The notes beneath the pieces were generated by a model. That model was not told the origin of the DNA, did no database searches, and was given only the letters and a program-made list of their open reading frames with translations. A stretch of DNA of 64,000 nt from Candidatus Latescibacterota bacterium (GTDB lineage: Bacteria > Latescibacterota > UBA2968 > UBA8231), in contig OZ253462.1 of assembly GCA_965261395.1 (NCBI GenBank), positions 2,624,001 through 2,688,000 of the forward strand, read 5' to 3'. Positions within the stretch are counted from its first letter, which is position 1. Every line of letters begins with the position of its first letter. Positions 1,975 through 42,337 of the stretch are shown piece by piece. Both the position numbers and the translations under genes were made by a program.

Positions 1975-2010
1975 TACCGCAAAAGGCGGCAGGCGTGGGC
2001 AGGGCCGATG

Positions 2011-3084
2011 TTACACCTGCTCTTCCCGGCCCGAAGCGGCCGAGCGGTACGCTGCGTCGAGCATTTCCACCCCGCGCATGGCCGCTTCGCCCGGGGTCCA
2101 GTTGACGTCGGTTTTGCCCAAGATCAGGTCGGCAAAGTTGTTGGGCGGACCATCGCACTCGTAGGCCCCCGCGTCCTCGGCGACCGCCTCGACGACGTGT
2201 TGGCCGTCGTGGCGGCGCAGGTGCATGCGGGCGCGCTCGCAATCAATGAGCAGCATGCCCTCCGAGCCGAACAGGCGCAGATCGACCTGAAAGGTCTGGT
2301 CTGTGGGCACGGTACCAGCACCGCTGACCGTGCCGACGGCCCCCGAAGTAAAGCGCACCGTCAGCGCGTCGTACAGCTCAACCTCGGCCCCGGGCGCGCT
2401 CATGGCGGCAAAGACGCGCTCGGCGCGCAGGCCGGACAGCCAAAACAGCAGCCCCGAGGAGTGCGATATTTGCGCGTGGGCGTAGCCGCCGTCGGCTATG
2501 GCGGGATCGGCCCAAGTGGAAGGCGTGGGGCCGAAGAGGCTGGCACTGTCCTGCCCGGAAATGTCCGAGACATCCACCTCTTCCCCCGAAAGCAGGGCGC
2601 GGATCGGCGAGGCCATGTGGCAGAGCGCGAATTCGATCTCGCCGATGGCTTGGTCGTCCATCAGCGCCTTGGCCCGCTGGATAAAAGGCTTGTGGTGCCA
2701 GCCATAGGGCACGAGCAGGTGACGGTCCCGCGCGGCGGCGAGGCGCACCAATTCGCGCGCGGCGGCAGCGCGGGTAGTCAGGGGTTTTTCGCACATCACG
2801 TGCAGACCCGCCTCCAAAGCGGCGCGCGCGTGTTCGTGGTGCAGGGTGTGCGGCGAGGCTACGACGACTCCGTCGAGTTCGCAGTGGGCCAATAGCTCTC
2901 GGTAGTCCTGGGTGGCAAACGCGAATCCGAAGTGGTCCCGCACCTGCTCTAGCTCGGTCTGGCCCAAGCGGCAGACGGCCGTCAGTTCGACGTCGTCGCG
3001 GGCGGCAAAAACGGGCATGTGGTTGCTGGTGGCCCACCAGCCAGCGCCGATAAATCCCAGGCGCACTTTGTCTTGGGTACTCAT
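2011..3084 (-). CDS. Gfo/Idh/MocA family oxidoreductase
   Basis: GFIGAG Rossmann motif, HVMCEKP; start set at MSTQDK after AAGGAG. Confidence 0.9.
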   Translation of the reverse strand: MSTQDKVRLGFIGAGWWATSNHMPVFAARDDVELTAVCRLGQTELEQVRDHFGFAFATQDYRELLAHCELDGVVVASPHTLHHEHARAALEAGLHVMCEKPLTTRAAAARELVRLAAARDRHLLVPYGWHHKPFIQRAKALMDDQAIGEIEFALCHMASPIRALLSGEEVDVSDISGQDSASLFGPTPSTWADPAIADGGYAHAQISHSSGLLFWLSGLRAERVFAAMSAPGAEVELYDALTVRFTSGAVGTVSGAGTVPTDQTFQVDLRLFGSEGMLLIDCERARMHLRRHDGQHVVEAVAEDAGAYECDGPPNNFADLILGKTDVNWTPGEAAMRGVEMLDAAYRSAASGREEQV

Positions 3085-3380
3085 GGGCGATTGCTCCTTG
3101 GTTGGAGCGGCTAATGTAGGAGCGAGCGATTGGCGGATCAAGTGCAATGGTACCTGATGTTGTGCACAGCGAAGCGGAGTCGAAACATCTCATCCCTACG
3201 TGGCCTGTGAGTAACATCACAAATTAATTTGCCCACCGGCTTATTTTTTTCCTTTAATTATCTGACTTACGCACGAGTCCCTTATCGACGATTGACGCCT
3301 GACCATTCGCACGTCTGCCTTAGCTATCGCTCTAACTTTCATATCCCTATTATACCTCTCATCCACAAGGAAGGAAGGAA

Positions 3381-4136
3381 ATGGCTGCCCCTATAGCGCT
3401 TCAGCTCTACACGGTCCGCGACGCCCTCGCTCGCAACTTCAAGTCCGTGGTCACCCGGATTGCCGAGATAGGGTACGTAGGAGTCGAGACAGCCGGATTC
3501 CCCGGCATCGGAGTAGATGAAGCCAGCGACCTATTTGCCGATCTGGGGTTAGACGTATGCAGCATGCATACGCAACTGCCCTTGGGCAAACAAAAAAACC
3601 AAGTCATCGAACTGGCCCTCGAGTTGGAAGCCACCCGCATAGTGTCTTCCACGCCGCGCGATGCCTTCGCCAGCGCAGACGCGCTCAAGGCGCTTTGCGA
3701 CCGCTGGAACCAAGCCGCCGAGATCGCCGCCGAGAATGGATTGGAACTGGGCCTGCACAACCACTGGTGGGAGTTCCAAGAAGTGGAAGGGCGTCCGGGC
3801 TTCGAGCACCTAGTCGACGCGCTCGACGAGTCCATCTTCTTTCAGGTAGATACCTATTGGGTCAATACCGGCGGCGGCGACTCGGTGCAGGTCGTCGAGG
3901 CGTTGGGCGAGCGCGCGCCGCTTCTGCACATCAAAGACGGCCCGTGCGACCCCGCGCAGGACATGCTCGCCGTCGGCGAGGGAGCCATGGATTTCCCGCC
4001 CATTATCGAGGCCAGCCACGGTACCTGCGACTGGCTGATCGTCGAGTTGGACCGCTGTGCGACCGATATGATGGAAGCCGTAGAAAAGAGTTATCAATAC
4101 CTCGTTGGCAACGAGCTGGCGCGCGGTGCCAGATAA
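3381..4136 (+). CDS. Sugar phosphate isomerase/epimerase (xylose isomerase-like TIM barrel)
   Basis: LQLYTVRD, HNHWWEF, DTYW, HIKD, VELD motifs. Confidence 0.9.
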   Translation: MAAPIALQLYTVRDALARNFKSVVTRIAEIGYVGVETAGFPGIGVDEASDLFADLGLDVCSMHTQLPLGKQKNQVIELALELEATRIVSSTPRDAFASADALKALCDRWNQAAEIAAENGLELGLHNHWWEFQEVEGRPGFEHLVDALDESIFFQVDTYWVNTGGGDSVQVVEALGERAPLLHIKDGPCDPAQDMLAVGEGAMDFPPIIEASHGTCDWLIVELDRCATDMMEAVEKSYQYLVGNELARGAR

Positions 4137-4151
4137 CGCAAAAGGAGCGTC

Positions 4152-4802
4152 ATGGCAAAGAAAGCAATTATGGTTTGGGGCGGCTGGGAGGGGCATGAGC
4201 CCAAGCAGTGCGTCGATATTTTCGCGCCCATTTTAGAACAAGAAGGGTTTGCGGTAACTCTTTCGGACACCCTCGACGCGTACAAAGACCGCGACCTAAT
4301 GGCCGAGCAGGATCTCATAGTGCCAGCGTGGACGATGGGCCAGATTGAAGGAGAGCAGGAACAAGGGCTGCTCGCGGCTGTTGATCGCGGTGCCGGTGTA
4401 GCGGGCTGGCACGGCTGCATGGCCGATTCGTTCCGCAACAATACTACCTATCAATTCATGGTCGGCGGCCAGTTTGTCGCCCATCCAGACGGCATCATCG
4501 ACTACACGGTCAACATCGCGGCCCCAGATGACCCCATCGTCGCCGGCCTAGACGACTTTCAAATGCACTCCGAGCAGTACTACATGCACACCGACCCAGG
4601 CAATCAAGTGCTCGCCACCACGACTCTAGAGGGCCGCCAGAGTGCGTCTTGGGTCAACGGGACGGTCATGCCGGTGGTGTGGAAGCGCGCGTGGGGAGCG
4701 GGTCGGGTATTCTATTCGTCCCTAGGCCACGTAGCGCGAGATTTCGACGTGCCCGAAGCGCGTGAAATCCAGCGACGCGGCATGCTATGGGCCAGCCGCT
4801 GA
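4152..4802 (+). CDS. ThuA-like (trehalose utilisation, class I GATase-like) protein
   Basis: [38 protein letters not shown]. Confidence 0.9.
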
Positions 4803-6032: not shown

Positions 6033-7063
6033 GCGAGCGACCCCTGCAATGCGACCTCTTGCTCGCCAGAGACGATTTCCCCGAGCCGATAGGCTTGGCA
6101 GTCTTGGTCCGCTACGTAGGCCAGCACCTGTTCCACGGCCTCGGGTGCGACCACCAGCGCCATACCCACACCCATATTGAATGTGCGCAGCATGTCCGCG
6201 TCCTCTAGATCGCCAGCTTCGTGCAAGGTGCGGAAGACCGGCGGGATCTGCAGGGCTGCCAAGTCGAGTTGGGCGTTGAAGCCCGGCGGCAAGATGCGAC
6301 TGATGTTGTCGCGGAGGCCGCCGCCGGTGATGTGGGCCATGCCGTGGAGTCTAGAGTCGGTAAAAAGGCCGCGCACGGCATGCAAGTAACAGGTATGGGG
6401 CTTGAGCACCGCTTCGAGGAAGGATTCGCCGGCCACGTCTGCGGCGAGCAGATCGGGTTGCCGGTCTAAGAGGGCGCGGACCAAGGTGTAGCCATTGGTG
6501 TGCAAGCCGTTGGAAGCGAGCGCCACAACCTGATCGCCGGCCTTGATCGCCCGACCGTCGATAATATTGTCCTTATCGACGACGCCGATGACGCTGGCGG
6601 TCAGCACGTAGAGGCCGTCGGGGACCACGCCGGGCTGCACTGAGGTCTCGCCGCCGGTCAGGGTGCAGTCCTGTTGACGGCAGGCGTCGGCCAAGGCGTC
6701 CACGAGGTCGTTGACGATGGCTCCCTCCATCGTGCCGCAGACGATGACGTCCTGGATCGAAATCGGCTCGGCACCCATGACGATGATATCGTCGATGAGG
6801 TGGTGGACCATGTCGTAGCAGACCCCGCGATGGCGGCCGTGGGCAAAAGCCAACTTCTGCTTGGACCCAGGCTCCTCGCTCTTGTGCACCAGCACCGGAT
6901 GTGCGTATCCGGGGAAGCGGGCGTCGAGCAGGGTGGCGAACGCGCCAATCCGGTTGAGCACGCGCGGGTCTGCGGTTTCCATGCTCGCGGCCATGGCGCG
7001 CTTGGCGGCATCGGTCTGGTCTATATCGACGCCGGTGCTGGCGTAGGAGAGGCGTTGGCTCAT
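6026..7063 (-). CDS. purM: Phosphoribosylformylglycinamidine cyclo-ligase (AIR synthase)
   Basis: Y..TGVDI, GGET, SNGLHTNGY, HITGGG, RTFNMGVGM. Confidence 0.95.
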   Translation of the reverse strand: MSQRLSYASTGVDIDQTDAAKRAMAASMETADPRVLNRIGAFATLLDARFPGYAHPVLVHKSEEPGSKQKLAFAHGRHRGVCYDMVHHLIDDIIVMGAEPISIQDVIVCGTMEGAIVNDLVDALADACRQQDCTLTGGETSVQPGVVPDGLYVLTASVIGVVDKDNIIDGRAIKAGDQVVALASNGLHTNGYTLVRALLDRQPDLLAADVAGESFLEAVLKPHTCYLHAVRGLFTDSRLHGMAHITGGGLRDNISRILPPGFNAQLDLAALQIPPVFRTLHEAGDLEDADMLRTFNMGVGMALVVAPEAVEQVLAYVADQDCQAYRLGEIVSGEQEVALQGSLAW

Positions 7064-8232
7064 GGGGTTCCTTTCTGTTCCATCAAATCGGGGATCAACT
7101 CGACGCCCAACCCCGGCCCGGGCGGAGCGTGCAGGCAGCCCTGCTGGTAGGTCAAGCGCGGTGTGACAACATCGCTCGCCAACAGGCCCGGGCCGACCAA
7201 ATCCGAAGGCGCGCAGACGGCTTTGGTGGCCACGCCAAGATGCACGGCTGCGGCCGTGCCAATGCCGAGCTCGACCGTGCTGCCGAGCAGGACGGGTACG
7301 CCAGCGGCCGCGGCGAGTTGGCTCAGCCGCTGGGCGCGGTGCAGGCTGCCGGCTTGGACGGGTGCGACGTTGAAGGCATCCACGGCCCGGTGGCGCAAGA
7401 GGGCGAGGGCAAACGAGTCGTCAAAATCGGCGACGTGTTCGATGAGGGCGGCGGGCACGGCTGCGCGCACCCTCGCCAAGGCCAAGGCTGCGGAGTCTGG
7501 GTCGGCATTGACCTGTTCGGGATGGTCCTTGGCCACTTTGCGGGCGACGCATTGGATCGGCGTCTCCACCGCATCTACGCCCAGCGCGGCCAGTTCGCGG
7601 ATCCGCTCGATGGCCTCCTCTTCTTCCCACGCGCCCGAAGCATCGGCCTTGAGGTACGCATCCGGGCCGACGATCCGGCGGCAGACGCGGACGCGCTCGC
7701 AGTCGAGGTCAAAGTCGGCCCCCACCTTGAGCTTGAAGGCCCTAAAGCCCGCGGCGACCTTTTCCTGAATTTCTTCTGCCATCTCATCTGCACCGCGGAT
7801 GTACGCGACCCAGGAGATGGGCAGCGCATCCCGGTACTGGCCGCCTAGGAGCGCGTAGGCCGGAGCGTTGTAATACTTGCCCGCGAGATCAATCAGGGCC
7901 ATTTCCACGGCTGCACTGACGAGCCGGCGGAATTCCGGGTGGTCGCTGGCGGGCAGCGCCTCGGCGACGCGCTCCCAAGCGACGAGGCGTTTGCGCGGAT
8001 CAGCACCGGCCAACAGAGGCGTCAAGGTATCGCGGAGGATCGCTGGCGACGGCGCTCGCCACGCATCCTCTAGGTCCGAGATTTCGCCGAGACCGCGCAG
8101 GCCGGTATTGGTCTCGAGTTCCAGCACGTAGTAGCGCGAGGAATTCTTGCTGTGGCCGCCCGTGGGGGCTACGTGGGTGTGGTACACGCGGGATACGACG
8201 ACCGAGTAAACGCGGATGTGGCAGATGTGCAT
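7060..8232 (-). CDS. Mandelate racemase/muconate lactonizing enzyme superfamily protein, atypical active site
   Basis: GLGE capping domain, EMALIDL.GK, FKLKV, DAS/ETP, P.GPGLGVE. Confidence 0.85.
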   Translation of the reverse strand: MHICHIRVYSVVVSRVYHTHVAPTGGHSKNSSRYYVLELETNTGLRGLGEISDLEDAWRAPSPAILRDTLTPLLAGADPRKRLVAWERVAEALPASDHPEFRRLVSAAVEMALIDLAGKYYNAPAYALLGGQYRDALPISWVAYIRGADEMAEEIQEKVAAGFRAFKLKVGADFDLDCERVRVCRRIVGPDAYLKADASGAWEEEEAIERIRELAALGVDAVETPIQCVARKVAKDHPEQVNADPDSAALALARVRAAVPAALIEHVADFDDSFALALLRHRAVDAFNVAPVQAGSLHRAQRLSQLAAAAGVPVLLGSTVELGIGTAAAVHLGVATKAVCAPSDLVGPGLLASDVVTPRLTYQQGCLHAPPGPGLGVELIPDLMEQKGTP

Positions 8233-8325
8233 AAGGCGACTCGGGAAAGGTGAATGGCCGGATTGTACGGCTGGCCCTCAGCTAAGTCAACCGTATATTA
8301 TTCAACATCTTAACAGGAGTGCCGG

Positions 8326-9048
8326 ATGACGGCCACGGAAGAAATCCTCGTGCTGAGCGCGACGGCCTTTGAGCAGCTTGCCCTCAGGGAGGCCGTGGCC
8401 GAGCGCGTGCAGCGCAAAGTCGCCGAGCGCGAATGGGTGAGTGGGAAAATTGGCACTCAGCCGGTGACTTTGGTGGCCACCGGAATCGGTGCGGTGAACA
8501 CAGCGCACGCGCTCACCTGCTACTTGCAGGCGCAGCGACCGCGGCGGGTCGTCCAAGTCGGCGTGGGCGGGGCGTACCCCGAGAGCGGGGCAAGCGTCGG
8601 AGATCTGGCCCTAGCCAACGAGGAATACTACGGGGATCTAGGAGTGCGGACGCCGGACGGCTGGCAGGGCGGAGAGCTGATTGGCATTCCGGTGCTGGAG
8701 AAAGGGCGCTCTTACTACAATTGTTTTCCCATCGACGAGCAGTGGGTACAACGGGCGGCAGCGGCTTTACCGGAAGCTTACATCGGCCCCTTCGTCACTG
8801 TGCAGGAATGCACGGGCACCGATGAATTGGGGGTGGAAAGAGGGCGGCGCTTTGGGGCTTTGTGCGAAAACATGGAAGGCGCGGCCGCCGCGCACGTATG
8901 CGCCTTGTACGAAGTCCCTTTTGCCGAGCTGCGCGCTATGAGCAACATCGTCGAGCAGCGCGCGCGGGAGCAATGGGATTTGCCGCGAGCCGCCGCTAGG
9001 GCGCAGGCTGCGGTTCAGAAGCTTATAGAGGAGGGACTATGCGCGTGA
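8326..9048 (+). CDS. mqnB: Futalosine hydrolase
   Basis: TGIGAVN, GVGGAY, E.YGDLG, ENMEGAAAA, R.MSN.V..R...W; adjacent to mqnD. Confidence 0.9.
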   Translation: MTATEEILVLSATAFEQLALREAVAERVQRKVAEREWVSGKIGTQPVTLVATGIGAVNTAHALTCYLQAQRPRRVVQVGVGGAYPESGASVGDLALANEEYYGDLGVRTPDGWQGGELIGIPVLEKGRSYYNCFPIDEQWVQRAAAALPEAYIGPFVTVQECTGTDELGVERGRRFGALCENMEGAAAAHVCALYEVPFAELRAMSNIVEQRAREQWDLPRAAARAQAAVQKLIEEGLCA

Positions 9049-9866
9049 CCTTGGGCTATTCGCCCTGTCCCAATGATACATTTGTCTTTTGCGGCTTGGT
9101 CCACGGGCAGATTGCCGACGCGCCGGTATGCGAGGAGGTGCTGGCGGACATCGAGACGCTCAATGAGATGGCGCTGCGGGGGCAGCTCGACGCGACCAAA
9201 ATATCCTTCCACGCACTGGCGCACTTGCGGGAGCAGTACTGCCTCCTGCACTCGGGGGGTGCCTTGGGGAGGGGATGCGGGCCGCTGTTGGTAGCGCGGG
9301 AGAAGCTGGCGCTAGAAGACCTCAAGCACAAGCGGATCGCCATTCCCGGGCGGCTGACCACCGCAGCCCTGCTGCTGAGGCTCTTTGACCCCAGCATTGA
9401 GCAGCTCGCGGTCATGCCGTTCGACCAAATCGTGGACGCGACCGCGCAAGGCCTAGTCGATGCGGGCGTCATCATCCACGAGAGCCGCTTCACCTATGCC
9501 CAACACGGACTAGAAGCGATCATCGACTTAGGCCAGTGGTGGGAGGAAAGCACCGGGCATCCAATCCCCCTCGGCGGCATCCTCGCGCGGCGCAGCCTCG
9601 GGGCCGAACTCATCGGCCAACTCGACCTCGCGCTCGTACAGAGCGTGGAGTACGCCTATGCCCATCCAGACGCGGTGCGGGGCTACATCCGCCAGCACGC
9701 CCAAGAAATGGACGACAGCGTCATGCAGGCGCACATCGACCTGTACGTCAACCAGCACACGCTCGACTACGGAGCCGACGGTGAGGCCGCCATATTCGAC
9801 CTAATCGAGCGGGCCGAGCGGGCCGGCATCGCGCCTAAGTCCGATGCGCCGCTCTTTATTTCTTAA
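9039..9866 (+). CDS. mqnD: 1,4-dihydroxy-6-naphthoate synthase
   Basis: SPCPNDTF, GGALGRGCGP, IIHESRFTY, PIPLG, HIDLYVN. Confidence 0.95.
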   Translation: MRVTLGYSPCPNDTFVFCGLVHGQIADAPVCEEVLADIETLNEMALRGQLDATKISFHALAHLREQYCLLHSGGALGRGCGPLLVAREKLALEDLKHKRIAIPGRLTTAALLLRLFDPSIEQLAVMPFDQIVDATAQGLVDAGVIIHESRFTYAQHGLEAIIDLGQWWEESTGHPIPLGGILARRSLGAELIGQLDLALVQSVEYAYAHPDAVRGYIRQHAQEMDDSVMQAHIDLYVNQHTLDYGADGEAAIFDLIERAERAGIAPKSDAPLFIS

Positions 9867-9889
9867 ACAATTACCAGGGAGCAATACGC

Positions 9890-10912
9890 GTGAAACTAGT
9901 GCAATTTACCGAGCCGGGCGACGGCATGCGTTTGGGCCTCGTCGCCGGCGACGAGGTCTTAGACCTGACAGGCTCAGAACAGGGACCGCGCACCGTGCAT
10001 CAGCTTTATTACGACGGCGGTGGCGACGAGATCGGGCTGGTGGCCGCCGCTCAGAACCTGCAAAAACGAGCTGCGCGTCGCTTGCCGCTTGCCGCGCTGT
10101 TGGCCAACCGCAGCACCCGCGACCCGTACCTCACCAAGCCGGTCAGCGGCCCGCCCGGCCATCCCCACGCCCTGCGCGTGTGGCTAGCCGGCGTCACCCA
10201 CGAGGTCAGCGCTAAGTTGCGCGAAATTGAGGCCCAGCAGGCCACCGGCGAGGCGGTCAATGTGTACGACCAGAAATACCGCGAAGTGTCCGGTGGCGGG
10301 CGACCCGAGCTGTTCGCCAAGGGCGAGCCGGACGCCGTCGTTGGGCACGGTCAGCCCATCACCCGGCCCGGCGATACCCAGCGCTTGGTGCCCGAGACCG
10401 AGTTGGTGTCGGTCTATGGCCTGACGCGCCAGGGCCGCTTAGAGAGGCTGGGCTATACCGGCGGCAACGACGCCACCGACAACGGCATTGAGGCCGCCAA
10501 TCCCCTCAACTTGCCCCAAGCCAAAAATTGGGCCGGTGGGTGTGCTTCCTTAGGGCCGGTGTTGGTTACGACCGACGAGTACGACGACGACGAGGTCGAG
10601 GTATCGTGCCGCATCCTGCGCGATGGACAATCCATAGCCTACAAAAAAGGCTCGACCGGCCAGAACAACCTGAACATGCCCGGGCAGCTCCTGCACTTAG
10701 AGTGCCACCTTTTCAATCGGCTGCCCCTAGAGCCGCGCACTTTAATGGCGTTTTATTGGGGAACGCCTATCGTCTTTGCCGAAGCGGACTTGTCGTCAGG
10801 GCTTTTGGACGGGGACGTGATGCAGTTGGAGTTTTCCGGTGGGATCGGGGTCTTGGAAAATCCAGTGGTGCCGCTCGAAGAGACAACGCAGCTACAGGGG
10901 TTAGGAGGATAG
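9890..10912 (+). CDS. Fumarylacetoacetate hydrolase family protein (2-keto-3-deoxypentonate dehydratase-like)
   Basis: W.AGVT, RPELFAK, PETEL, GYT.GND, E.ANPL.LPQAK. Confidence 0.8.
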   Translation: MKLVQFTEPGDGMRLGLVAGDEVLDLTGSEQGPRTVHQLYYDGGGDEIGLVAAAQNLQKRAARRLPLAALLANRSTRDPYLTKPVSGPPGHPHALRVWLAGVTHEVSAKLREIEAQQATGEAVNVYDQKYREVSGGGRPELFAKGEPDAVVGHGQPITRPGDTQRLVPETELVSVYGLTRQGRLERLGYTGGNDATDNGIEAANPLNLPQAKNWAGGCASLGPVLVTTDEYDDDEVEVSCRILRDGQSIAYKKGSTGQNNLNMPGQLLHLECHLFNRLPLEPRTLMAFYWGTPIVFAEADLSSGLLDGDVMQLEFSGGIGVLENPVVPLEETTQLQGLGG

Positions 10913-22739: not shown

Positions 22740-25577
22740 TTAGCCATTCCTCAAGTTCAGCTCCAGTAATTCGCCCAGCGCCTCGTCCTCCGAAATGCCC
22801 GCGTCCCACCCATACGCCTCCGCCACAGCCGCGTCGAGCGCGGCATGAGCATCGACAAGCCATTGCGGGCGAGCATTGTACAAATTGGTCAGTATGCGTT
22901 TCTTGAGTTCCTTCGCCGTCGCCTCGTCTCGGGGCACCGGGCGCTTGGGATAGCCGGGGACCGGCTCGTCCACCCACTCCACCCATTCGGGCGGACTGAG
23001 CCAGCGGTCGCGCAGTTCGACTAGTCGTCGCGCTGCTTCGGCGATGGCAACAGCACGCGGATCATTGGCGTAATCCGAAGCCGGAATATCGGGCGATAGC
23101 CCTTCGGGGAAGGGAAAGGTCTCGAAGGTGGTGGTCGGCGTGTAGCGCGGACGATCTTCTAGACTCGTGCCGAGCCGCAGCGACCACGCCTCGTGAAATC
23201 GGCTGTGCAAGATGCCGAAGGTCGTGTCGTCGTCGCGGGCGATGACAATTAGCTGATGATCGGGGCAGATGCGCACGTCGAGCCAAGCGAACAGACGGTG
23301 CTTGGCGACGGTGGGCGTAGCGATGTAGCGCGACAGACCGGCAAGTGCCTCCCACATCCCCGGCCTCGGCTCGACATGCCGCCACCAATGGATGCGATAG
23401 GCTTCCCGGCGATTCTGTTGTCGCATTGGATAAACGTGCTCCTTTGTGTGTTGAAACGGTGCCTCGTAGAGCGCGGCTTCCTCTTGCATCATGCTCCAGC
23501 CAAAATCGACAATCCATTTGTCAGCCGGTCGGCGGGTCAAGTCCATGCCATTTACCCACGGCTTGAGAACGTCGGAATTGGGCCGTCCGTTCGCGTTCGC
23601 AGGCTCGCGGAGCCATTCCCGGGCCTGCTCTCCGGGCACATCGAAGGGGCCGCCCTTGGTATCTCCCATGAACGCAATGCCGATGTTCCGGCATTGCCGT
23701 TGTGCCTTGGTCAGATCAACGTTCCCCGTCAGATCGGGATGGACCGCATCCACAAGCTGGCCATCGAGCCGCTGTTCCAGCGCCGCTCCATCATCCGGTC
23801 GTGAGAAGCACACCAAAGAGACGCGCACCGCCGCCCCATTAATCACCCACGGCTCATCGCTCCACGCCTCAAAGATCGGACGGTCCTCAGTCGCGGTTTG
23901 CAACGCCCGCCGATTCGCCCCGCCGCGAATGGAGTTGGTTGAGACGAGACCTGCGCGCTTTGCCTTGCCCGATTCTATGTGCTCGCCGGCCTTCACGAAC
24001 CAGTAGCAGACGAGATCTGCCTCCGCTGGTACGCGGCCTTCATACACCGTGAAAATGCTTGAAACATAATCCTCGCCAAGGTTCGCGTTGAGAAGTTTTC
24101 CTCCGATAAATGGCGGATTGCCGATCACTACATCGGCTGCTGGCCATGCCGGTTCCTCGCCGTCTGGGGTCAGGATCGCATCGCGGCATTCGATGGTGTT
24201 GAGCGGCTTGAGAACTGGACGATCCGCCCCGGTATAGCCGTTGCGCCGCATCCACTGGATTTCTCCGATCCACACCGACACGCGCGCTAATTCGGCGGCG
24301 TAGGCGTTGATTTCGATCCCCTTGACGTTGGCCGGGCTGACTTCGGGAAACGAGCGCTGGAGGTCAAAGGCTTCGGCCTCCAGTTGCACCCGATGCTCCA
24401 AGTCCTTGAGCGCGTGCAAGGCGACGTAGAGGAAGTTACCGGAGCCACAAGCTGGGTCGAGGATGGTGAAAGAGCGGAGGTGCTGTAAGAAAGCGTCCTT
24501 GCGCTGCTCGGCCCGACTGCGTTGGCGAGTCCGGGCAGCAGCAGATCGGGCATTTCCGGCTCGTTTCAGCGCGGCGGTGATTTCCCCTTTCACCTTTTCC
24601 CATTCGGCCAACCACGGGCGAATCACCACTGGCTCGACGATCCGCATAATTTTGTCGCGGTCCGTGTAGTGTGCCCCAAGCTGCGCCCGCTTACCCGGGT
24701 CGAGGCCGCGCTCGAACAGGGTGCCTAGGATGGAAGGATCAATCTCCGACCATTCTAGGGTCGCCGCTTGGAGCACCGTGTCGATCTCGGCCTTTTTTAG
24801 TGGAAGGGCGGTATCGTCGTCGAACAGCCCGCCATTAAACCAAGCCACCGGCTCAAAGCCAACCCGCCCGCCGGTGGCCATGGCAGCGAACAGATCGCGG
24901 GCCATGGCGGCGAACTCCTCTGGCTGCTGCCGCGCCTGCTCCAACATCCGCGTGAACAGATTGCTCGGCAAAAGACCTACGTCCTCGGCGAACATGCAGA
25001 ACACCAGCCGGTTGATGAAATGCGCCACTGCCTGCGGGTCATGGCCGCGTTCCCGCAAGGCTTGCGCCAGCAACGCAAAGGCCGTGGCCGCCCGCTCGGT
25101 GAGCGCCTGCCGGGTCTCGTCCGGCCGCAGCCGCTCAGGGTCGGATAGTGCCCACTTGAGCTTGTCGCGGACAGCGGCATCGGCTAAATCGTCGATCTCG
25201 AATCCGTGGGTCTTGCTGACGCTGTTGGTCCAGTTGGTGCGGATGCGGAACCGCCGCATGTCGGAGACGATCAAAAGCGGCGGGTTTTCCAAAGCTAGCG
25301 CGTATTGCCTGAGTTGGTCAAAGGCCGCGTCTAAGTTGGCACGCGGGCCCTTGTACTCCCAAGCGAAGCAGTGTCGCTTCCACACGTCGGCCCAACCATC
25401 GCCGCCGGTTTCCTTGCGAGCACCCTTCTCAAAGCAGTACGTCTCGCCGGTAGGATCGCCCTCGGTCGGGGTTGACTCGCCGAGCAGCCGGCACAGGTCG
25501 ATAAAGTGCTCCTGAGCAGCCGAGCGTTCCTTGAGTTCGACGGCACGCCACTTGGTAATGAATACCTCTGGAGTCAT
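22740..25577 (-). CDS. MmeI-like (Type IIL/IIG) fused restriction endonuclease-N6A methyltransferase
   Basis: ADVWK...WEYK nuclease motif, ILDPACGSGNFL, GNPPF, GAHYT, RYTP...FETFPFP, LTNLYN.RP.WL...H..LD.AV..AYGW. Confidence 0.92.
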   Translation of the reverse strand: MTPEVFITKWRAVELKERSAAQEHFIDLCRLLGESTPTEGDPTGETYCFEKGARKETGGDGWADVWKRHCFAWEYKGPRANLDAAFDQLRQYALALENPPLLIVSDMRRFRIRTNWTNSVSKTHGFEIDDLADAAVRDKLKWALSDPERLRPDETRQALTERAATAFALLAQALRERGHDPQAVAHFINRLVFCMFAEDVGLLPSNLFTRMLEQARQQPEEFAAMARDLFAAMATGGRVGFEPVAWFNGGLFDDDTALPLKKAEIDTVLQAATLEWSEIDPSILGTLFERGLDPGKRAQLGAHYTDRDKIMRIVEPVVIRPWLAEWEKVKGEITAALKRAGNARSAAARTRQRSRAEQRKDAFLQHLRSFTILDPACGSGNFLYVALHALKDLEHRVQLEAEAFDLQRSFPEVSPANVKGIEINAYAAELARVSVWIGEIQWMRRNGYTGADRPVLKPLNTIECRDAILTPDGEEPAWPAADVVIGNPPFIGGKLLNANLGEDYVSSIFTVYEGRVPAEADLVCYWFVKAGEHIESGKAKRAGLVSTNSIRGGANRRALQTATEDRPIFEAWSDEPWVINGAAVRVSLVCFSRPDDGAALEQRLDGQLVDAVHPDLTGNVDLTKAQRQCRNIGIAFMGDTKGGPFDVPGEQAREWLREPANANGRPNSDVLKPWVNGMDLTRRPADKWIVDFGWSMMQEEAALYEAPFQHTKEHVYPMRQQNRREAYRIHWWRHVEPRPGMWEALAGLSRYIATPTVAKHRLFAWLDVRICPDHQLIVIARDDDTTFGILHSRFHEAWSLRLGTSLEDRPRYTPTTTFETFPFPEGLSPDIPASDYANDPRAVAIAEAARRLVELRDRWLSPPEWVEWVDEPVPGYPKRPVPRDEATAKELKKRILTNLYNARPQWLVDAHAALDAAVAEAYGWDAGISEDEALGELLELNLRNG

Positions 25578-25654
25578 GGTCCTATGGTCACTAGCCGCTT
25601 GAAGCGGGCGAATGCTGTAAATGGGATTGGATCGTTAGTATTCATCGCGGCCTG

Positions 25655-26857
25655 CTAGGTGATCACCAACTCCTCGTCAAGTTGACGTAGCCCGATGCCC
25701 TCGAAAAGCCTTTGCCTCCATAGGGCACCCGGTAAGTCTCCCTCTGTGACAAGAGTACGCAGCAGTTCGCTATCGGACGCTCGGCGCACGGTCGTGAATC
25801 CGTCTTTCTTAACCAACCAGAAGATCTCATCGAGTTCTGCTCCGTTCAGGAAATCGGGAGAGTGGGTTGAAACGAACACTTGGCCGCCGCGCCGGGCGTA
25901 GTCCCGAAACTCCTCGGCCAATTCTATTAGCAATTCGGGATAGAGCTGGTTTTCGGGTTCTTCGACCGCCAGCAACGGATGAGGCTTCGGGTCATACAGC
26001 AAGACGAGGTAGGCGAACATCTTGATGGTGCCGTCAGAGACGTAGCGGGCAATAAAGGGGTCTTTGAAGCTGCCATCCTGAAAGCGCAGGACGAGACGCC
26101 CGTCCTCCGTCGGTTTGGCTTCAACGCCGCTCACGCCGGGGACACGCTGGCTCATAGCTTTCAGCACTTGGTCGAAGCACTCGCGGTGATTTTCGTAGAG
26201 GTACTGGGCCACTTGGGCGATGTTATCGCCACGGTTAGACATATGCTCGGCATAGCCGGCCTCACTGCTTGGTCGGGCATCGGCAATGTGGAAGTCCGAG
26301 ACGTGCCAGTTTTCGATCAGGCTGCGGAAATCTGAGACGACTTGGAACTCGCGGAACTGCCCCAAGCCTTTGATCGCGAGGACGCTGGGGTCATCGAGCT
26401 TGTACTCCGCTCTTTTTTCTTTTACTTCTTCCTGACCATAGACCGATTCATTTGTGATCGCGGTTCCGATCCCGCCTGAGAAATCAACGAAATGCCAGGG
26501 GCGTCCATACTGCCCTTTACGGTAGTGGAGTACTTCGCGTTCAACCGAGACTTGGCCACCCCTCGCTACTATTTCGAGTTCGTAAGTGGCCAGACGTCCG
26601 CCGCTCTCGCGGAATTTGATGGTGATCCCAATCGGCCCCTTTTCTCCCCGGCTAACCAACTCGCGGAACCCTCCGCGTCGCGCCACTGCCATGGTGACGT
26701 TCTGGGTCAGCGCGTCCTTGAGAAAGCTAAACACGTCGAGTAGCGTTGACTTGCCCGTGCCGTTCGCGCCCACGACTACGACCATCGGGGGTAAATTATC
26801 AAACACGGCGTGGCGGAAGGAACGGTAGTTCTTGATTTCAATCTGCTCAATCCGCAT
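25655..26857 (-). CDS. AAA_21/ABC-type ATPase of defence/TA-associated type
   Basis: IKNYRSF, GANGTGKST, SDGT, LLAVEEPEN, STHS; start MRIEQ after GGAGG. Confidence 0.9.
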   Translation of the reverse strand: MRIEQIEIKNYRSFRHAVFDNLPPMVVVVGANGTGKSTLLDVFSFLKDALTQNVTMAVARRGGFRELVSRGEKGPIGITIKFRESGGRLATYELEIVARGGQVSVEREVLHYRKGQYGRPWHFVDFSGGIGTAITNESVYGQEEVKEKRAEYKLDDPSVLAIKGLGQFREFQVVSDFRSLIENWHVSDFHIADARPSSEAGYAEHMSNRGDNIAQVAQYLYENHRECFDQVLKAMSQRVPGVSGVEAKPTEDGRLVLRFQDGSFKDPFIARYVSDGTIKMFAYLVLLYDPKPHPLLAVEEPENQLYPELLIELAEEFRDYARRGGQVFVSTHSPDFLNGAELDEIFWLVKKDGFTTVRRASDSELLRTLVTEGDLPGALWRQRLFEGIGLRQLDEELVIT

Positions 26858-26920
26858 AGGTTGTTCCTCCGTATTGTCGAACATTACTGTTGTTGGGCTA
26901 GGCTGCTCCATTGGCGGCTA

Positions 26921-27628
26921 TCACGATTCATCTAGTGACCGGCGAAGAGTTGCGGTCAATTTCTGACGGAAGTCCTTGTCATTATCCCTAGACTTAGACC
27001 AAATAACGGTCGTGCAGTGATTCGTATCGAAGTGGGTTCCATCGTTGCTTTCAAATTTTTTCTTTTCGCAGATATAGATAACAGGTTTGCCTAGACCCTC
27101 CGCGTAACCGGCCTCCCAATATGCGCCATTGTTGCCGTGAGTGAGGTCGGCAATAACGAACTTCGCGTCTCTGATTCGGACACGCATGATGTTGTCGATG
27201 ATACCCGCCTTTGAGACATCGCGCATATCGACGAGATCATAACCGGTGGCATCCTTTACCTCGGGTTTCACAACGTCCCAAACAAAGGATTCGAGATCGG
27301 GTTCGTTGAACTGCATGGCGAGGAAACCGTAGTTTCCAGCAAACCCCCCATGCTTTTCCTCTTCGTACTGTTCCCATCCGTCGAGAGAGAGGTTGACATT
27401 CGCAAAAGGTGTTAGGTCAGATTGGTACGTTACTAATTCCGTCATTTGGATGGTCTGGTTTTTGTACAACTCTCTGACGAGTTGCATAAAGAATTCCTTG
27501 CTCGGAGCGCCAATTTCCTGGCTGATTTCAGGGAGATAGGAAATTGGCTTACCCAATTCCGATACTTGGTCTCCAATGTATCGAATGAGATTCATCGCCT
27601 GCACCGCAGGGCTCGTGAATTCGTTCAT
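26921..27628 (-). CDS. Protein with C-terminal nucleoside 2-deoxyribosyltransferase-like (NDT/TIR-like) domain
   Basis: FLAMQF, FVIADLT..NNGAYWEAGYAEGLGKPVIY.C, HFD..H; N-terminus wHTH-like (LSLDGW..YE). Confidence 0.75.
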   Translation of the reverse strand: MNEFTSPAVQAMNLIRYIGDQVSELGKPISYLPEISQEIGAPSKEFFMQLVRELYKNQTIQMTELVTYQSDLTPFANVNLSLDGWEQYEEEKHGGFAGNYGFLAMQFNEPDLESFVWDVVKPEVKDATGYDLVDMRDVSKAGIIDNIMRVRIRDAKFVIADLTHGNNGAYWEAGYAEGLGKPVIYICEKKKFESNDGTHFDTNHCTTVIWSKSRDNDKDFRQKLTATLRRSLDES

Positions 27629-29857: not shown

Positions 29858-30916
29858 TCAGCGTATCTGCCCGCGGGCGTCAACCGGCCAGACGGCTTCC
29901 ACGCGGCCGCCGCGCACGGCAAAGATCTGGTCGTGTTCGTTGAAACAGGGGCAGGGATGAACCGGCAGGACTTGCACTTGTTCGCCGATTTGGGGCTTGT
30001 CGTCACAGGCCGATAGATCGACCTGCCCGTGTTCCTCCGAGGCCCCGGAGAAGACGGCTTGGGGGTACTCGACGATGTGCCCCATGATGAATGAACCGTC
30101 TTCCCCGCGATGGACCGCTGCGCTGAGCGACTTGCTGCCCCCGTCGAGGATGGCGCGATCCGCGGCTGGTCGGCTGACTACGGTCATCAGCACCCGGCCA
30201 GCGCACTGACCGACGCTGTGGGTTCCCCGGCGGAGATGGCCGACGCCGCCGACTGGGTACTCGCCGGCCCGGTACTCGGTCAGTTCGGGGATTTCGTGCG
30301 CCTTGAACGCGCCCGGTGTACTACCGCCACTGACGATGGGATGCGGCAGACCCTTGCGGTCGAAATGCGCGAGCGTCTCTTGGATTAGCGGCCGCATGTC
30401 TGGAGTCGCTGGCATAGACATGATGCCCCGGAGTTCGATGTTTGGGGCCTGATCGATTTTTTCGCCTAGGGCGCCCGCGGCCGCGGGCGAGCCTACGCCC
30501 GTGCGGCCGCGATCGAGTTCGACGACCACGCCCACAGTGACATCCGCTTCCGCAGCAGCTTCGGCTAGCCCTTGCACGGTGTATTCGGAATCAGCCGCCA
30601 CGGTCAGCCGGGTGTCCCGCGCCAGCGCGACCAGCCGCGCCAGCTTTTGCGCGCCGATGATGTTATAGGGAATCAGGATGTCGCGATCGACTCCGCCCGC
30701 CGCCATGACTTCGGCCTCCCCGAGCTTTTGGCAGGTGATGCCGATCGCCCCGCGACGCATTTGCATATGGGCGATGGCCACGCATTTGTGGGTCTTGATG
30801 TGGGGCCGCAAGCCAATACCGTGCTCGTCAAAGTAGCGTTGGTAGCGGTCGAGGTTGTCCTCCAAGCCGTCGAGATCGACGAGGAGGGCGGGCGTGTCGA
30901 GGTCTTCTATGCGCAT
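29858..30916 (-). CDS. D-threonine aldolase/DSD1-type PLP-dependent enzyme (alanine racemase fold)
   Basis: DTPALLVDLD, RPHIKTHK, CQKLGEAE, SGGSTP, D.GSK.LS, SEEHG, HPC. Confidence 0.9.
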   Translation of the reverse strand: MRIEDLDTPALLVDLDGLEDNLDRYQRYFDEHGIGLRPHIKTHKCVAIAHMQMRRGAIGITCQKLGEAEVMAAGGVDRDILIPYNIIGAQKLARLVALARDTRLTVAADSEYTVQGLAEAAAEADVTVGVVVELDRGRTGVGSPAAAGALGEKIDQAPNIELRGIMSMPATPDMRPLIQETLAHFDRKGLPHPIVSGGSTPGAFKAHEIPELTEYRAGEYPVGGVGHLRRGTHSVGQCAGRVLMTVVSRPAADRAILDGGSKSLSAAVHRGEDGSFIMGHIVEYPQAVFSGASEEHGQVDLSACDDKPQIGEQVQVLPVHPCPCFNEHDQIFAVRGGRVEAVWPVDARGQIR

Positions 30917-31197
30917 AGTGGCCTTTCCTTGATGGTAATTTCTGGTGATCAATGTCTAGGATTTGCACCGTAAACGCAACGAGTACAAGCTGAAGGAAAA
31001 GCCGGAACACGGAGATCATACAGCTATATTTGCCGATTTGACGATGTTCAAAAGAAATTATATTACTTGACTAACGGACCAAAACTCCCTATTCAAAGAT
31101 TTTTGCCGTACCCAAGGGCACTGCATTGGGCGAAACTGCCGCCAATCAATCGTCTGACCAAAGAGGCAACCGCATGATTCGCTATCTGGATTGGTAA

Positions 31198-31710
31198 ATG
31201 CTGGATTTGAACGAACTGGACACTGACAACATCCCCGGTATCTCACGAGCAAAGGGTAACGAATTGGCCGAAGCCGGAGCCGTTTGCCTAGAATCTCAGG
31301 GTCATACACCAGGTGCTTACCTTACTGTCCGTAATGGCGCTAATAATAGTTATCGGCTAGATTGGCCGCAGGTCACTAACCAAGCCCGCCGGACTTGGAA
31401 TGACGATGAGGAGGCTACCGAAGACGGTGCTGCCGGCATTGCTGTCCTACTGGCAAGTCGGGAAATCGGTTACGCGGTTGTATTGCGTTCACGAAAGGGT
31501 ACCGGATTCGATTATTGGCTCGGGGATGATGTACTAGACTTTAGAGCAAGGATGGAAGTATCCGGCATCCGAAATGGTAATGATGGCCAAGTCAAGACAA
31601 GAGTGAAACAGAAATTGCGCCAGATGAATCGGTCGAATGATCAGAAATTACCGGCTTACGCAATCGTGGTTGAATTCGGGCGGCCAATTGCCGAAGTAAA
31701 AAAGAAATGA
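31198..31710 (+). CDS. Hypothetical protein, PD-(D/E)xK restriction-endonuclease-like fold
   Basis: ATE.GA helix, KGTGFDYWLG, ARMEVSGI, R..QK..Q, AYAIVVEF; ATGA overlap with next gene. Confidence 0.7.
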   Translation: MLDLNELDTDNIPGISRAKGNELAEAGAVCLESQGHTPGAYLTVRNGANNSYRLDWPQVTNQARRTWNDDEEATEDGAAGIAVLLASREIGYAVVLRSRKGTGFDYWLGDDVLDFRARMEVSGIRNGNDGQVKTRVKQKLRQMNRSNDQKLPAYAIVVEFGRPIAEVKKK

Positions 31711-32834
31711 ACTCAGTTAATCATCTCCACAAAAAAGCTATGGAATTCGCAGACCTCGGCCTCAGAAGAAGGGCGCGTGGCAATGCGGAAGAATCCCTAG
31801 AGTATTTTGAGCAGGCACTTCACTATGAATTGGCTGCCATTGACGAGCTTGACAAAACAGAGGAGTTGGCTTGGGCAGTGTTGCATCGCAGCGCTGGCAC
31901 CTTGGCATTGGATTGCAGGGACTTTCTCCAAGCCGAGAAAATAGTAGCCACTGCTCTGGCGCAGGAACCGCATCCAGAGATTGCGGAGGAGTTGCGCGAC
32001 CTTTTGGAGCAGATTTACTTCCAAAGGCACCTCGATCTGAAAGGCATTACTTTGCAGGAGGATGAGATTCAGTTGAGTCTCTCAGGCCCAAAAGTGGGAA
32101 ATGGTTTTGTCAACGTGGAAGAAATATATGAGCGCATCAGTAGCTCGTCGAAACTGATTCACCGTACCGTTGAGCGAAAGCGAAACCAGCCTTTCCGGGA
32201 AAGAGGGCCTGTACAAAAAGTAATACGGGAAAATTACCAGACGCTGGTTTCTGTGCCTAGAAGCGGGAGTTTCGCAGTGACGCTTAAATTCAGTAGGCCA
32301 CAACTGTCTTTTTCGGGAATGCTTGAGACGACTGCTATCATCGATGAGTTCATGGACTTACTTGCATTGATCAACAGCTCCCACATCATCGAAATACGGA
32401 AGCGTATCCCTGAACCTGCTTATTTGCAGAACTTCTTTGGTCTGGTAAGAAGAATTGCGCCCGATGGCGAACGAATCAGTCAGGTGGGTTTTACCGCAAT
32501 TCGTGAAGGAGTACAACGTTCTGTAGGGCTTACCATGCCGGCGGCGGAGCTTCCATCACTGCCACCAGAAATGTTGTCGCCGCAGGTCGAGTCACAGCAG
32601 ACACCAAGCGAACCTATAGAAATACGCGGAATATTACTCCACGCGGATGCGATGCGCGAAGACAGCAATATCATACAAGTTATTGATGGAAATAAAAAAC
32701 ACACCGTACAGGTGCCACAGGGCATGATGAATGACATCGTGCGTCCTATGTGGGATTCGCACGTAATAATACAGGGTATACTCACCGGCGAACGTATTAT
32801 ACTGGAAGATATCAGGCCAGACGACTCGGCTTGA
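31707..32834 (+). CDS. Hypothetical protein: N-terminal TPR-like helices, central GSF-motif domain, C-terminal OB-like beta region
   Basis: H.KAM..AD..A..YE..A..VLHRSA..LA.DC..AE.....AL.....EIAEELRDL; PRSGSFAVTL; beta-rich C-terminus. Confidence 0.7.
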   Translation: MNSVNHLHKKAMEFADLGLRRRARGNAEESLEYFEQALHYELAAIDELDKTEELAWAVLHRSAGTLALDCRDFLQAEKIVATALAQEPHPEIAEELRDLLEQIYFQRHLDLKGITLQEDEIQLSLSGPKVGNGFVNVEEIYERISSSSKLIHRTVERKRNQPFRERGPVQKVIRENYQTLVSVPRSGSFAVTLKFSRPQLSFSGMLETTAIIDEFMDLLALINSSHIIEIRKRIPEPAYLQNFFGLVRRIAPDGERISQVGFTAIREGVQRSVGLTMPAAELPSLPPEMLSPQVESQQTPSEPIEIRGILLHADAMREDSNIIQVIDGNKKHTVQVPQGMMNDIVRPMWDSHVIIQGILTGERIILEDIRPDDSA

Positions 32835-32927
32835 AACCGCTAGATTACCTCACATCCTCTACTACCCTCTCCTCCCAATCCCGCCGCAGAAATTGACGCG
32901 ATCAGGTCCCTTGCCTTTTGTTGCAAG

Positions 32928-33452
32928 ATGCCCATTGATCTCCAACCCTCCACGCCCGTCGCATTAGTCTGCGCAGTATTGGCCGACTCCACAGAGACGC
33001 TCGCCGCGGCCCAAGAACGCCTCGCCGAATGCTTCGGTCCTCTGCGCACGGCCAGTGCGATCTATGATTTTGATTTCACCTCGTATTACGCAGCGGAAAT
33101 GGGCGCGGGATTGTGCAAACAGCTCGTGTGCTTTGCCGAGCGGATCGACCCCGCCGAGTTGGCGGCCGTTAAGGCACAGACCATGGCGCTGGAGCGGGCG
33201 ATGAGCCGAGGGCGGTGTCGCCGCGCCAACATCGACCCAGGGTTGCTCTCGATCGAGAGTTTGGTGTTGGCCACGACTAAATTCGCTGGCCACCGGGTGT
33301 GTATTGCCCCACAGCTCTACGCTGAGGTGACCCTGCTCTATCAGCGAGGACGCTACCGGCCTCTGGAGTGGACGTATCCCGATTACCAAGGCGATACAGT
33401 GCAGCGGTTCTTGCTCGATGTGCGGCCTTGGTTGCTGGCAGTGCGCGGCTGA
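32928..33452 (+). CDS. DUF4416 family protein
   Basis: FDFT.YY..EMG..L, R.ANIDPG.L, LATTK...HR, WTYPDY. Confidence 0.85.
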   Translation: MPIDLQPSTPVALVCAVLADSTETLAAAQERLAECFGPLRTASAIYDFDFTSYYAAEMGAGLCKQLVCFAERIDPAELAAVKAQTMALERAMSRGRCRRANIDPGLLSIESLVLATTKFAGHRVCIAPQLYAEVTLLYQRGRYRPLEWTYPDYQGDTVQRFLLDVRPWLLAVRG

Positions 33453-42250: not shown

Positions 42251-42337
42251 TGGTGCGAAAGGGGGGACTCGAACCCCCAAGCCCTTTCGGGCACTAGATC
42301 CTAAATCTAGCGCGTCTGCCAGTTCCGCCACTTTCGC
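42251..42337 (-). tRNA. tRNA-Leu(TAG), CCA encoded
   Basis: GCGAAAG/CTTTCGC acceptor stem, anticodon arm CTAGA-TTTAGGA-TCTAG, long variable arm, GTTCGAG T-loop; usual position upstream of tig. Confidence 0.97.

Follow-up and report, generated by a model that had tools for sequence, protein, structure and literature searches.

We describe a two-gene module in Candidatus Latescibacterota bacterium that lies on a small insert within a 64,000-nucleotide stretch of contig OZ253462.1 (assembly GCA_965261395.1, positions 2,624,001 to 2,688,000 of the forward strand). This whole stretch is called the window below, and its own numbering is used throughout. The first gene, g1, encodes a small protein with a probable restriction-endonuclease-type core, and the second, g2, encodes a larger partner with a widely shared N-terminal domain (N-domain). 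Intact g1 genes were never found without a partner gene, whereas partner genes were found without an intact g1. Our preferred reading, which we consider to have about an even chance of being correct, is that the pair is a horizontally mobile, toxin-antidote-type nuclease module of an unnamed family that is probably related to defence. The features of the module are as follows (aa, amino acids; ORF, open reading frame).

30930..32874, no strand: whole insert, 1945 bp, low GC; the site is empty in same-genus genomes
30930..31197, plus strand: non-coding leader of the insert, 268 bp, with a near-invariant block at ~31040-31095
31198..31710, plus strand: g1, 170 aa, from the ORF list
31707..32834, plus strand: g2, 375 aa, from the ORF list
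31707..32042, plus strand: N-domain of g2 (residues 1 to ~112), five TPR/MIT-type helices in residues 3-111
32043..32600, plus strand: middle domain of g2 (residues ~113-298), mixed alpha/beta, pLDDT (predicted local distance difference test) 57-92 by block
32601..32834, plus strand: predicted C-terminal OB fold of g2 (residues ~300-375) and stop codon, from model and Foldseek

The initial annotation of this DNA had reported two ORFs coupled by an ATGA overlap, which is exactly what was found, with the shared stop and start at 31707-31710. The motifs that it quoted are all present in the translations (EEATEDGA, GTGFDYWLG, ARMEVSG and the RVKQKLRQ helix of g1, and PRSGSFAVTL of g2). Database searches returned 1183 relatives of g1 and 909 relatives of g2 at E ≤ 0.001, and a profile search with g1 reached 1962 representatives at 50% identity, 459 of these at E ≤ 1e-30. 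Against five orthologous loci, the ratio of nonsynonymous to synonymous substitution rates (dN/dS) was 0.31-0.42 for g1 and 0.21-0.36 for g2. Together, the relatives and these ratios indicate that both g1 and g2 are real genes. The same annotation had interpreted the pair as a new defence or toxin-antitoxin-like system; its observation was confirmed, and its interpretation is partly supported by the results below.

Pairing, decay and the modular partner

A scan of one genome per species gave 499 loci encoding a g1 relative, of which the best 80 (49-94% identity) were examined (L-numbers below denote loci and G-numbers denote the genomes examined). A g2-type gene begins 0-21 nt after g1 in every one of the 80 loci, and such a gene likewise follows g1 in 3/3 distinct plasmids and 6/6 viral contigs of IMG/VR. 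The obligate pairing that had been proposed was thus borne out in 80/80 genome loci, in 9/9 plasmid and viral copies and, as shown below, for 35/35 intact g1 genes. Similar pairs in cyanobacteria, which the initial annotation had mentioned, do exist: Anabaena cylindrica PCC 7122 and Leptolyngbya boryana each have a plasmid copy.

The fate of the two genes was followed in two independent samples of genomes. The first sample comprised the genome of the window and 40 relatives (41 genomes), in which g1 was present in 14 genomes and the N-domain in 17. All 13 intact g1 genes adjoin a full-length N-domain gene, and among the 20 full-length N-domain genes, three adjoin a g1 that is broken or reduced to a remnant (G032 twice and G033) and four have no g1 within ~3 kb (G036, G038, G031 and G006). 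The second sample comprised 61 genomes around G041, which was reached via a locus titled Dehalococcoidia. Here 22/22 g1 or g1-like genes are partnered, 17 of them typical and 5 divergent, and five N-domain genes stand alone. The five divergent genes had seemed partnerless at the genome-wide threshold, but inspection revealed in each case an overlapping downstream gene of 367-395 aa, the N-terminus of which fits the profile of the N-domain (E 1e-8 to 1e-12).

These divergent genes form a subfamily of their own (L102-L106 in G055, G052, G070, G058 and G057), with g1-like proteins of 151-188 aa that score 93-115 bits against the g1 profile. For one of the g1-like ORFs the called length is 280 aa, which probably reflects a start set too far upstream. 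Their partners begin with M-(T/S)-W-L-E and are missed by genome-wide searches with the N-domain profile (A7).

Across both samples, all 35 intact g1 genes are partnered, whereas 12 full-length partner genes lack an intact g1; as the genomes within a sample are related, these counts do not stand for independent events. On the Leptolyngbya plasmid, an intact partner accompanies a g1 broken over three frames. This asymmetry is what would be expected, although it is no proof, if g1 were harmful without its partner, and it supports the initial suggestion of an effector held by its partner.

The constant part of the partner is the first ~100-118 residues of g2, that is, the N-domain. Among the partners in the 80 loci, 44 are long forms (2 of which are interrupted), 31 consist of the N-domain alone (114-178 aa) and 5 carry other C-termini. 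The L079 partner ends in a Dam-like methyltransferase (E 2.9e-10, passing the cut-off; 1/80 loci), the L017 partner has a sub-threshold match to HTH_3 (E 2e-4, 21.8 bits against a cut-off of 23) and the L057 partner contains a domain of the phage family phrog_18731 (E 4e-41). On a Hymenobacter radiodurans plasmid (L082, 6519-7421), the N-domain (E 5.8e-24) is fused to a complete sugar transferase (PF02397, E 2.8e-52). The earlier remark that the pair has neither a methyltransferase nor a helix-turn-helix (HTH) domain therefore holds for the window copy but not for the relatives whose partner is fused to a Dam-like domain or to a region with a weak HTH match. Since the middle and OB domains are absent in 31/80 loci, they are optional additions and not the essential sensor for which they had been taken, and the partner that remains constant is the ~110-residue N-domain.

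In six loci, a third gene of ~250 aa starts on the stop of a short partner or a few bases from it, and its products share 53-58% identity with the L018 copy (alignment A4).

L018, 8944-9723: ~250-aa third gene
L021, 8920-9675: ~250-aa third gene
L027, 8941-9714: ~250-aa third gene
L031, 8944-9705: ~250-aa third gene
L033, 8929-9672: ~250-aa third gene
L038, 8938-9678: ~250-aa third gene

This gene has no match in Pfam or PHROGs. We considered that it might be the split-off middle and OB part of g2 and rejected the idea, for which hhalign gave a probability of 3.6% with a single sequence and 0.2% with a profile.

An orphan N-domain gene of 176 aa was also found in L097 (G006:C2:296800-303200; 1071-4771, minus strand), where it overlaps the end of an RmrA-like Xre-peptidase gene (PADLOC E 1.2e-30) and adjoins a retron-type RT-Toprim gene (E 2.5e-224). 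From this locus, the N-domain may also serve other systems. A complex prediction for g1 with residues 1-115 of g2, both given as alignments and run without controls, scored 0.00 against a mark of 0.32 and speaks neither for nor against binding.

The modular partner could also be read in the opposite sense, with g2 as the positive targeting or activating subunit of a two-subunit nuclease, whose N-domain docks g1 and whose swappable C-terminal head picks the substrate for a restriction-like attack or for repair or recombination on mobile elements. We regard this as unlikely, although several observations would fit it. The C-termini on the constant docking domain vary and are mostly nucleic-acid-related, the Dam-like fusion gives one variant the look of a restriction-modification (R-M) pair, and among the recurrent neighbours, a type I R-M methyltransferase-like gene is the most frequent (one cluster in 7 loci). 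Furthermore, a protein of 292 aa (P0374) unites g1 and the N-domain in a single frame. However, P0374 stands alone among the 150 representatives listed (of 1962) and may stem from a sequencing frameshift, and g1 is nearly always a stand-alone protein of 170-200 aa. The two longer g1 proteins among 853 candidates were not counted as real architectures either, where P0390 looks like a probable miscalled upstream start and P0391 is a chimera-like ORF in which a DUF499 fragment runs into the last two thirds of g1. In the 31 short-form loci, the partner lacks any head, and partner genes stay intact where g1 has decayed or gone, which fits an antidote better than a subunit that depends on its enzyme.

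Predicted folds of g1 and g2

Neither protein was placed in a family of Pfam, NCBIfam, PADLOC or PHROGs. g1 matched no Pfam family at E ≤ 1 and nothing in NCBIfam or PHROGs, and PDB profile searches with g1 returned nothing relevant. For g2, PHROGs gave no match, NCBIfam gave no meaningful match, and no HTH, ribbon-helix-helix (RHH) or AbrB domain was matched in Pfam or NCBIfam. Neither protein matches any model of the named or candidate anti-phage systems in PADLOC-DB 2.0.0 (models up to 2023) at E ≤ 1, and the original impression that no named system corresponds to the pair thus agrees with PADLOC, Pfam, NCBIfam and PHROGs. The relatives of both proteins are named 'hypothetical protein' by their sources, including the RefSeq/GenBank annotation of the plasmid copies, and the ESM Atlas gave only unnamed clusters for the pair. 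A lead to Hjc from the ESM Atlas (score 0.80, below the level of trust) was rejected; the Pfam Hjc model matches nothing in the genome of the window.

The AlphaFold2 (AF2) model of g1 has a pLDDT of 94.9 and a predicted template modelling score (pTM) of 0.90. A helix/hairpin extension at the N-terminus (residues 1-66), within which a Cys and a His are conserved, precedes a core of residues 70-169 with an alpha-beta-beta-beta-alpha-beta order (helix 70-90, strands 93-97, 106-111 and 114-124, helix 129-149 and strand 153-159). This order of elements fits the restriction-endonuclease core, and the model therefore makes it probable that the g1 core is of the PD-(D/E)xK type. Foldseek found no match at E ≤ 0.001 in PDB or BFVD, with a best E no better than 2e-3 and best TM-scores of 0.36-0.39, and the named matches are nearly all PD-(D/E)xK-type nucleases or EndA. 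The PDB matches are headed by a human tRNA splicing endonuclease subunit (E 4.3e-3, probability 0.97), with several archaeal EndA entries after it, and further PDB neighbours include YaeQ, the Cas4-family ACE1, the SPARDA nuclease domain, CinB, DrdV, DXO/Rai1 and RecU. The named BFVD matches are 'endonuclease', RecU-like, 'PD-(D/E)XK nuclease', Hjc and VRR-NUC entries, which align over 83-126 columns with a probability of up to 1.00. The restriction-endonuclease layout that had been read from the letters is thus retained as a fold-level core with weak Foldseek E-values, but no profile match accompanies it and a serine occupies the position of the motif lysine.

In 40 distant relatives, residues A78, D105, S122, G123, R135 and F160 of g1 are invariant, and the near-invariant residues include E75, E120, K139, Q142, H36 and C30. 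Judged from the model and conservation, E75, D105 and E120 are placed like the metal ligands of the PD-(D/E)xK fold. The position of the motif lysine is taken by the invariant S122 in 32 close and 40 distant relatives, and g1 therefore departs from the canonical (D/E)xK motif. An aromatic residue beside D105 is conserved, as is an R/K/Q face on the next helix (R135, K139 and Q142), from which K139 might stand in for the motif lysine.

These features leave room for g1 as a metal-independent, EndA-like RNA endonuclease, with the pair as an RNase toxin and its antitoxin, a reading that we hold to be rather improbable. The human and archaeal splicing endonucleases at the head of the PDB matches speak for it, as do the missing motif lysine and the conservation of K139, H36 and the aromatic residue beside D105, and most type II toxins are RNases. 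On the other hand, E75, D105 and E120 are positioned as PD-(D/E)xK metal ligands and the matches in BFVD are DNA nucleases (RecU-like, Hjc, VRR-NUC and PD-(D/E)XK entries). All of the fold scores are weak, and the comparison with the EndA catalytic residues concerns residue types, not aligned positions.

The loss of the canonical lysine, the lack of a family match and the metabolic character of the immediate window neighbours would also be compatible with a non-toxic accessory pair, in which g1 is an inactive nuclease-fold binder or regulator with a TPR scaffold and has no role in conflict. This appears improbable, as the acidic triad is strictly conserved in the 40 distant relatives, which argues for catalysis, and as the patchiness, empty sites, plasmid and viral copies, tandem copies and decay pattern are traits of conflict or addiction.

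The model of g2 is of medium confidence (pLDDT 79.8) and suggests three domains. Profile A7 of the N-domain matches consensus TPR proteins (E down to 1.1e-11) and VPS4 MIT domains (~1e-3), and Foldseek matches the N-domain to the KLC2 TPR domain (E 3.7e-3). The TPR-like helices described at first are consistent with this profile and with the KLC2 fold match, but the Pfam TPR models did not reach their cut-offs (TPR_2: 12.5 bits, cut-off 27). The middle domain has the conserved motifs PRSGSF, APDGER and QVGFT and no match in Pfam, PADLOC, NCBIfam, PHROGs, the PDB profile search or Foldseek. The C-terminus is predicted to be a five-stranded barrel of OB topology (strands 302-317, 320-327, 330-336, 352-360 and 363-371, and a helix at 341-348). 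Foldseek matches it to OB domains of lysyl-tRNA synthetase, the PolD small subunit, RPA, ExoVII and LEF-3 (probability 1.00, E 1.9e-3 to 1e-2, 71-86 columns, root-mean-square deviation 2.2-3.7 Å), in agreement with the OB-like C-terminus that had been anticipated.

Insertion site, spread and genomic neighbours

The AT-richer insert that the initial annotation had noted between housekeeping genes is an insert in the literal sense. The GC fraction is 0.465-0.517 at 30800-32999 (400-nt windows) against 0.585-0.68 in the flanking windows. In 5/5 same-genus genomes without the module, the flanks align to 30929 and resume at 32875-32877, with an unrelated spacer of ~36-46 bp in place of the insert. 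This alignment gap places the pair on a 1945-bp insert, which is bounded upstream by a conserved gene and downstream by a DUF4416 gene. The latter (32928-33452, Pfam E 2.7e-49) is directly downstream of the insert and has the same position in L001-L005. Judged only by reading the translations, we take the upstream neighbour to be amino-acid aldolase/racemase-like, and the genes further downstream are presumably citrate-synthase-, isocitrate-lyase-, purA- and serA-like. The pair is present as a single copy in its 6.55-Mb genome.

At the ends of the insert, direct or inverted repeats were limited to short matches at chance level, and no target duplication was found. No integrase or transposase gene is present among the ORFs inside the insert, nor is a methyltransferase according to the ORF list and Pfam. 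In the leader, the block at ~31040-31095 is nearly invariant in six orthologous loci (alignment A8, the window and L001-L005) and includes a TTGACT hexamer. By its conservation, the block may be a promoter or operator. A consensus scan found no plus-strand sigma-70-type site in the leader and no plus-strand promoter or terminator consensus in the insert. A 7-codon mini-ORF ending with TAA just 5' of the g1 start is not kept in L003 and was dropped. The sole match at gathering score in an Rfam search over the whole window was a tRNA gene (42254-42337, minus strand, 56.6 bits).

Contigs assembled from the RNA libraries of two studies, 95-96% alike, bridge the g1/g2 junction (e.g. 31147-32328 and 31056-32421); such contigs show the presence of close relatives, not transcription, strand or level. 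One contig of RNA-library run X2 joins 30929 to 32875 via 36 other letters, which is the empty-site form and suggests that this library contains both strains that have the insert and strains that lack it.

The best 80 loci come from metagenome-assembled genomes (MAGs) titled Latescibacterota, Dehalococcoidia, Chloroflexota, Nitrospirales, Nitrospinota, Gemmatimonadota, Thermodesulfobacteriota, Acidobacteria, Brocadiaceae, Omnitrophota and others. Identities of 50-60% recur across MAGs of differing titles (Latescibacterota, Dehalococcoidia, Nitrospirales, Gemmatimonadota, Nitrospinota, Thermodesulfobacteriota and Acidobacteria, among others). Within the same genus, g1 is present in only 5/24 other genomes. 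The plasmid copies include those of Anabaena cylindrica PCC 7122, Leptolyngbya boryana and Hymenobacter, and tblastn of g1 against 50,697 phage records gave no match. In the six IMG/VR loci, the pair is always near a contig end, where host flank and prophage cargo are indistinguishable. Three contigs (OZ242010.1, OZ240222.1 and OZ241888.1) each appear twice in the list of the best 80 loci and count as cases with two copies. The low GC, empty sites, patchy presence, duplicates and plasmid or viral copies together indicate an accessory and mobile module.

Tandem arrangements were also observed. L025 has two complete pairs in a row (6911-8974), and L100 (3173-4565) has a complete pair and, after it, an internally deleted g1 with another intact partner gene.

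The neighbouring genes are mostly unrelated between lineages, with 466 clusters among 616 neighbour ORFs. A PADLOC scan covered 258 neighbour ORFs of at least 90 aa, two genes on each side, in 73 of the 80 loci (L002-L005, L006, L020 and L026 share synteny with L001 or L014 and were left out), and its output consists of counts per family, not per gene, with no control set beside it. The matches include HmaC (3 members), DUF499 (3), type IIG enzymes (4), type I methyltransferase, specificity and restriction subunits, a CBASS cyclase, a ThsB-like TIR, AbiLi and PDC-M38A/B. The defence-island context that the initial annotation had named as a check is seen in the form of defence genes adjoining the pair in some loci, which is an association only and not a demonstrated enrichment.

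In L030, the candidate system PDC-M38 lies directly downstream of a short-form pair (8962-10683; PDC-M38A ATPase E 2.9e-76 and PDC-M38B E 7.6e-42). L080 has ORFs of like size at the same place (8929-10671), which are similar by eye.

The window itself contains a defence cluster on the minus strand at 22740-27628, 3.5-8.5 kb upstream of the insert and separated from it by three metabolic-looking genes.

22740-25577, minus strand: type IIG restriction-methyltransferase, 945 aa (PADLOC PDLC03627, E 0)
25655-26911, minus strand: HEC-01B-like AAA ATPase, 418 aa (E 5.2e-177)
26921-27628, minus strand: TIR-like gene, 235 aa, GC ~0.48 (PADLOC TIR effector, E 1.7e-9)

The product of the last gene has a TIR-like or nucleoside-deoxyribosyltransferase-like domain, with Pfam PF05014 below its cut-off and matches to several PHROG families of unknown function.

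The pair could also be read as a selfish gene for a homing-type endonuclease that stands free, comes with a helper and spreads through cleavage of empty sites. This would suit the nuclease-like fold and the clean replacement of a short intergenic spacer without integrase or repeats, but we consider it very improbable, given that the sites and neighbours are unrelated between lineages, that the insertion is intergenic and not in a conserved target gene, and that an obligate partner and orphan partner copies are, to our knowledge, not features of homing endonucleases.

A possible toxin-antidote module and its relation to known systems

In the toxin-antidote reading, g1 would be a small nuclease with a divergent PD-(D/E)xK core that acts as a harmful effector, and the N-domain of g2 would be its dedicated protein partner, which binds and restrains g1 and possibly directs it as well. 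The middle domain and OB fold of the window copy would most likely bind nucleic acid, or another cue that serves as the trigger, and tune the release or targeting of g1. The outcome would most likely be abortive infection or other anti-phage defence, a restriction-like attack, or the stabilisation of a genomic island.

Several points weigh against this reading. The fold matches of g1 are weak and no sequence profile ties it to any PD-(D/E)xK family, and the replacement of the motif lysine by an invariant serine makes the catalytic chemistry uncertain. The dN/dS of 0.2-0.4 indicates constraint and is silent on role. The short partner has no recognised DNA-binding domain of the kind found in classical type II antitoxins, and the partner fused to a sugar transferase misfits the otherwise nucleic-acid-related theme of the C-termini. 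The orphan partners could belong to other, unrecognised upstream genes instead of being relics, and most neighbours of the pair are ordinary metabolic genes.

The pair most closely recalls the toxin-first layout of type II toxin-antitoxin (TA) systems such as higBA or mqsRA. Like these, the two genes are co-directional and adjacent with a stop/start overlap and always occur together (80/80 loci, 9/9 plasmid and viral copies and 35/35 intact g1), their spread is patchy, multi-copy and horizontal and includes plasmids and prophage-like contigs, and the putative toxin is never kept without its partner (0 intact g1) while orphan partners occur (12). Unlike these, the pair has no sequence or family relation to any toxin or antitoxin in Pfam, PADLOC or NCBIfam, and the partner is TPR/MIT-like, not an HTH, RHH or AbrB DNA binder, and is often extended to 370-400 aa. 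With Hjc, RecU, VRR-NUC, Cas4, YaeQ and the tRNA-splicing endonuclease fold, g1 shares the order of elements and the placement of E, D and E in the model. It differs from the PD-(D/E)xK nucleases in having no profile-level similarity, Ser for Lys, its own 66-residue N-terminal extension and TM-scores of ≤ 0.39. In contrast to R-M systems, no cognate methyltransferase accompanies g1, and the Dam-like fusion was found only in L079 among the 80 loci.

Defence systems built on an effector and a partner offer a second comparison. Hachiman HamA/HamB is a defence pair of a small nuclease and a larger partner (PMC11914072), and BcTir/BcTpr has a TPR-partnered effector (bioRxiv 10.1101/2023.05.26.542521). 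They share with g1-g2 a two-gene operon of an effector and a partner thought to sense or control it, with a TPR-type partner module. g1-g2 differs in having neither a helicase nor a TIR domain and no PADLOC model match at E ≤ 1, and g2 has one TPR-like module of ~110 residues instead of a long array. Antitoxin domains described as hyperpromiscuous partner many toxins (PMC10440598), and the N-domain is portable in a similar way, occurring alone, fused to varied C-termini or beside other genes as in L097. The N-domain is of another fold and family, however, and has the same effector family beside it in each of the 35 intact cases.

Literature searches by keywords and by the accession numbers of the plasmid copies found no publication on the pair, supplements and subscription journals being beyond their reach, so that the supplement of a large defence-system screen could still list the family. 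The g1-g2 family, its E/D/E-x-S site and the portable, ~110-residue TPR/MIT-like partner are in none of the libraries searched, and the parts are known folds.

Taking these parts together, we offer a broader proposal that is possible but on the doubtful side. The N-domain may be a dedicated docking adaptor that links g1 to swappable heads (OB, HTH, Dam-like, a phage-derived domain, a sugar transferase or none), so that plug-and-play immune or addiction nucleases are exchanged by uncultured phyla, plasmids and phages, and the E/D/E-x-S site with a lysine from the next helix may be a new catalytic variant.

If the pair is a working toxin-antidote or defence module, it would enlarge the set of bacterial conflict systems by a widespread family (1962 clusters at 50% identity and 499 loci), mostly from phyla without cultured members, in which current defence-finding models detect nothing. 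The pair would further supply a compact 170-aa nuclease with an atypical active site and a protein switch of ~110 aa, both of which would be handy for biochemistry and structural work, and the modular partner would be a natural experiment in swapping sensing or targeting heads on a constant effector. Even if it is a mere addiction module, the pair would still be a useful marker of mobile DNA in these genomes.

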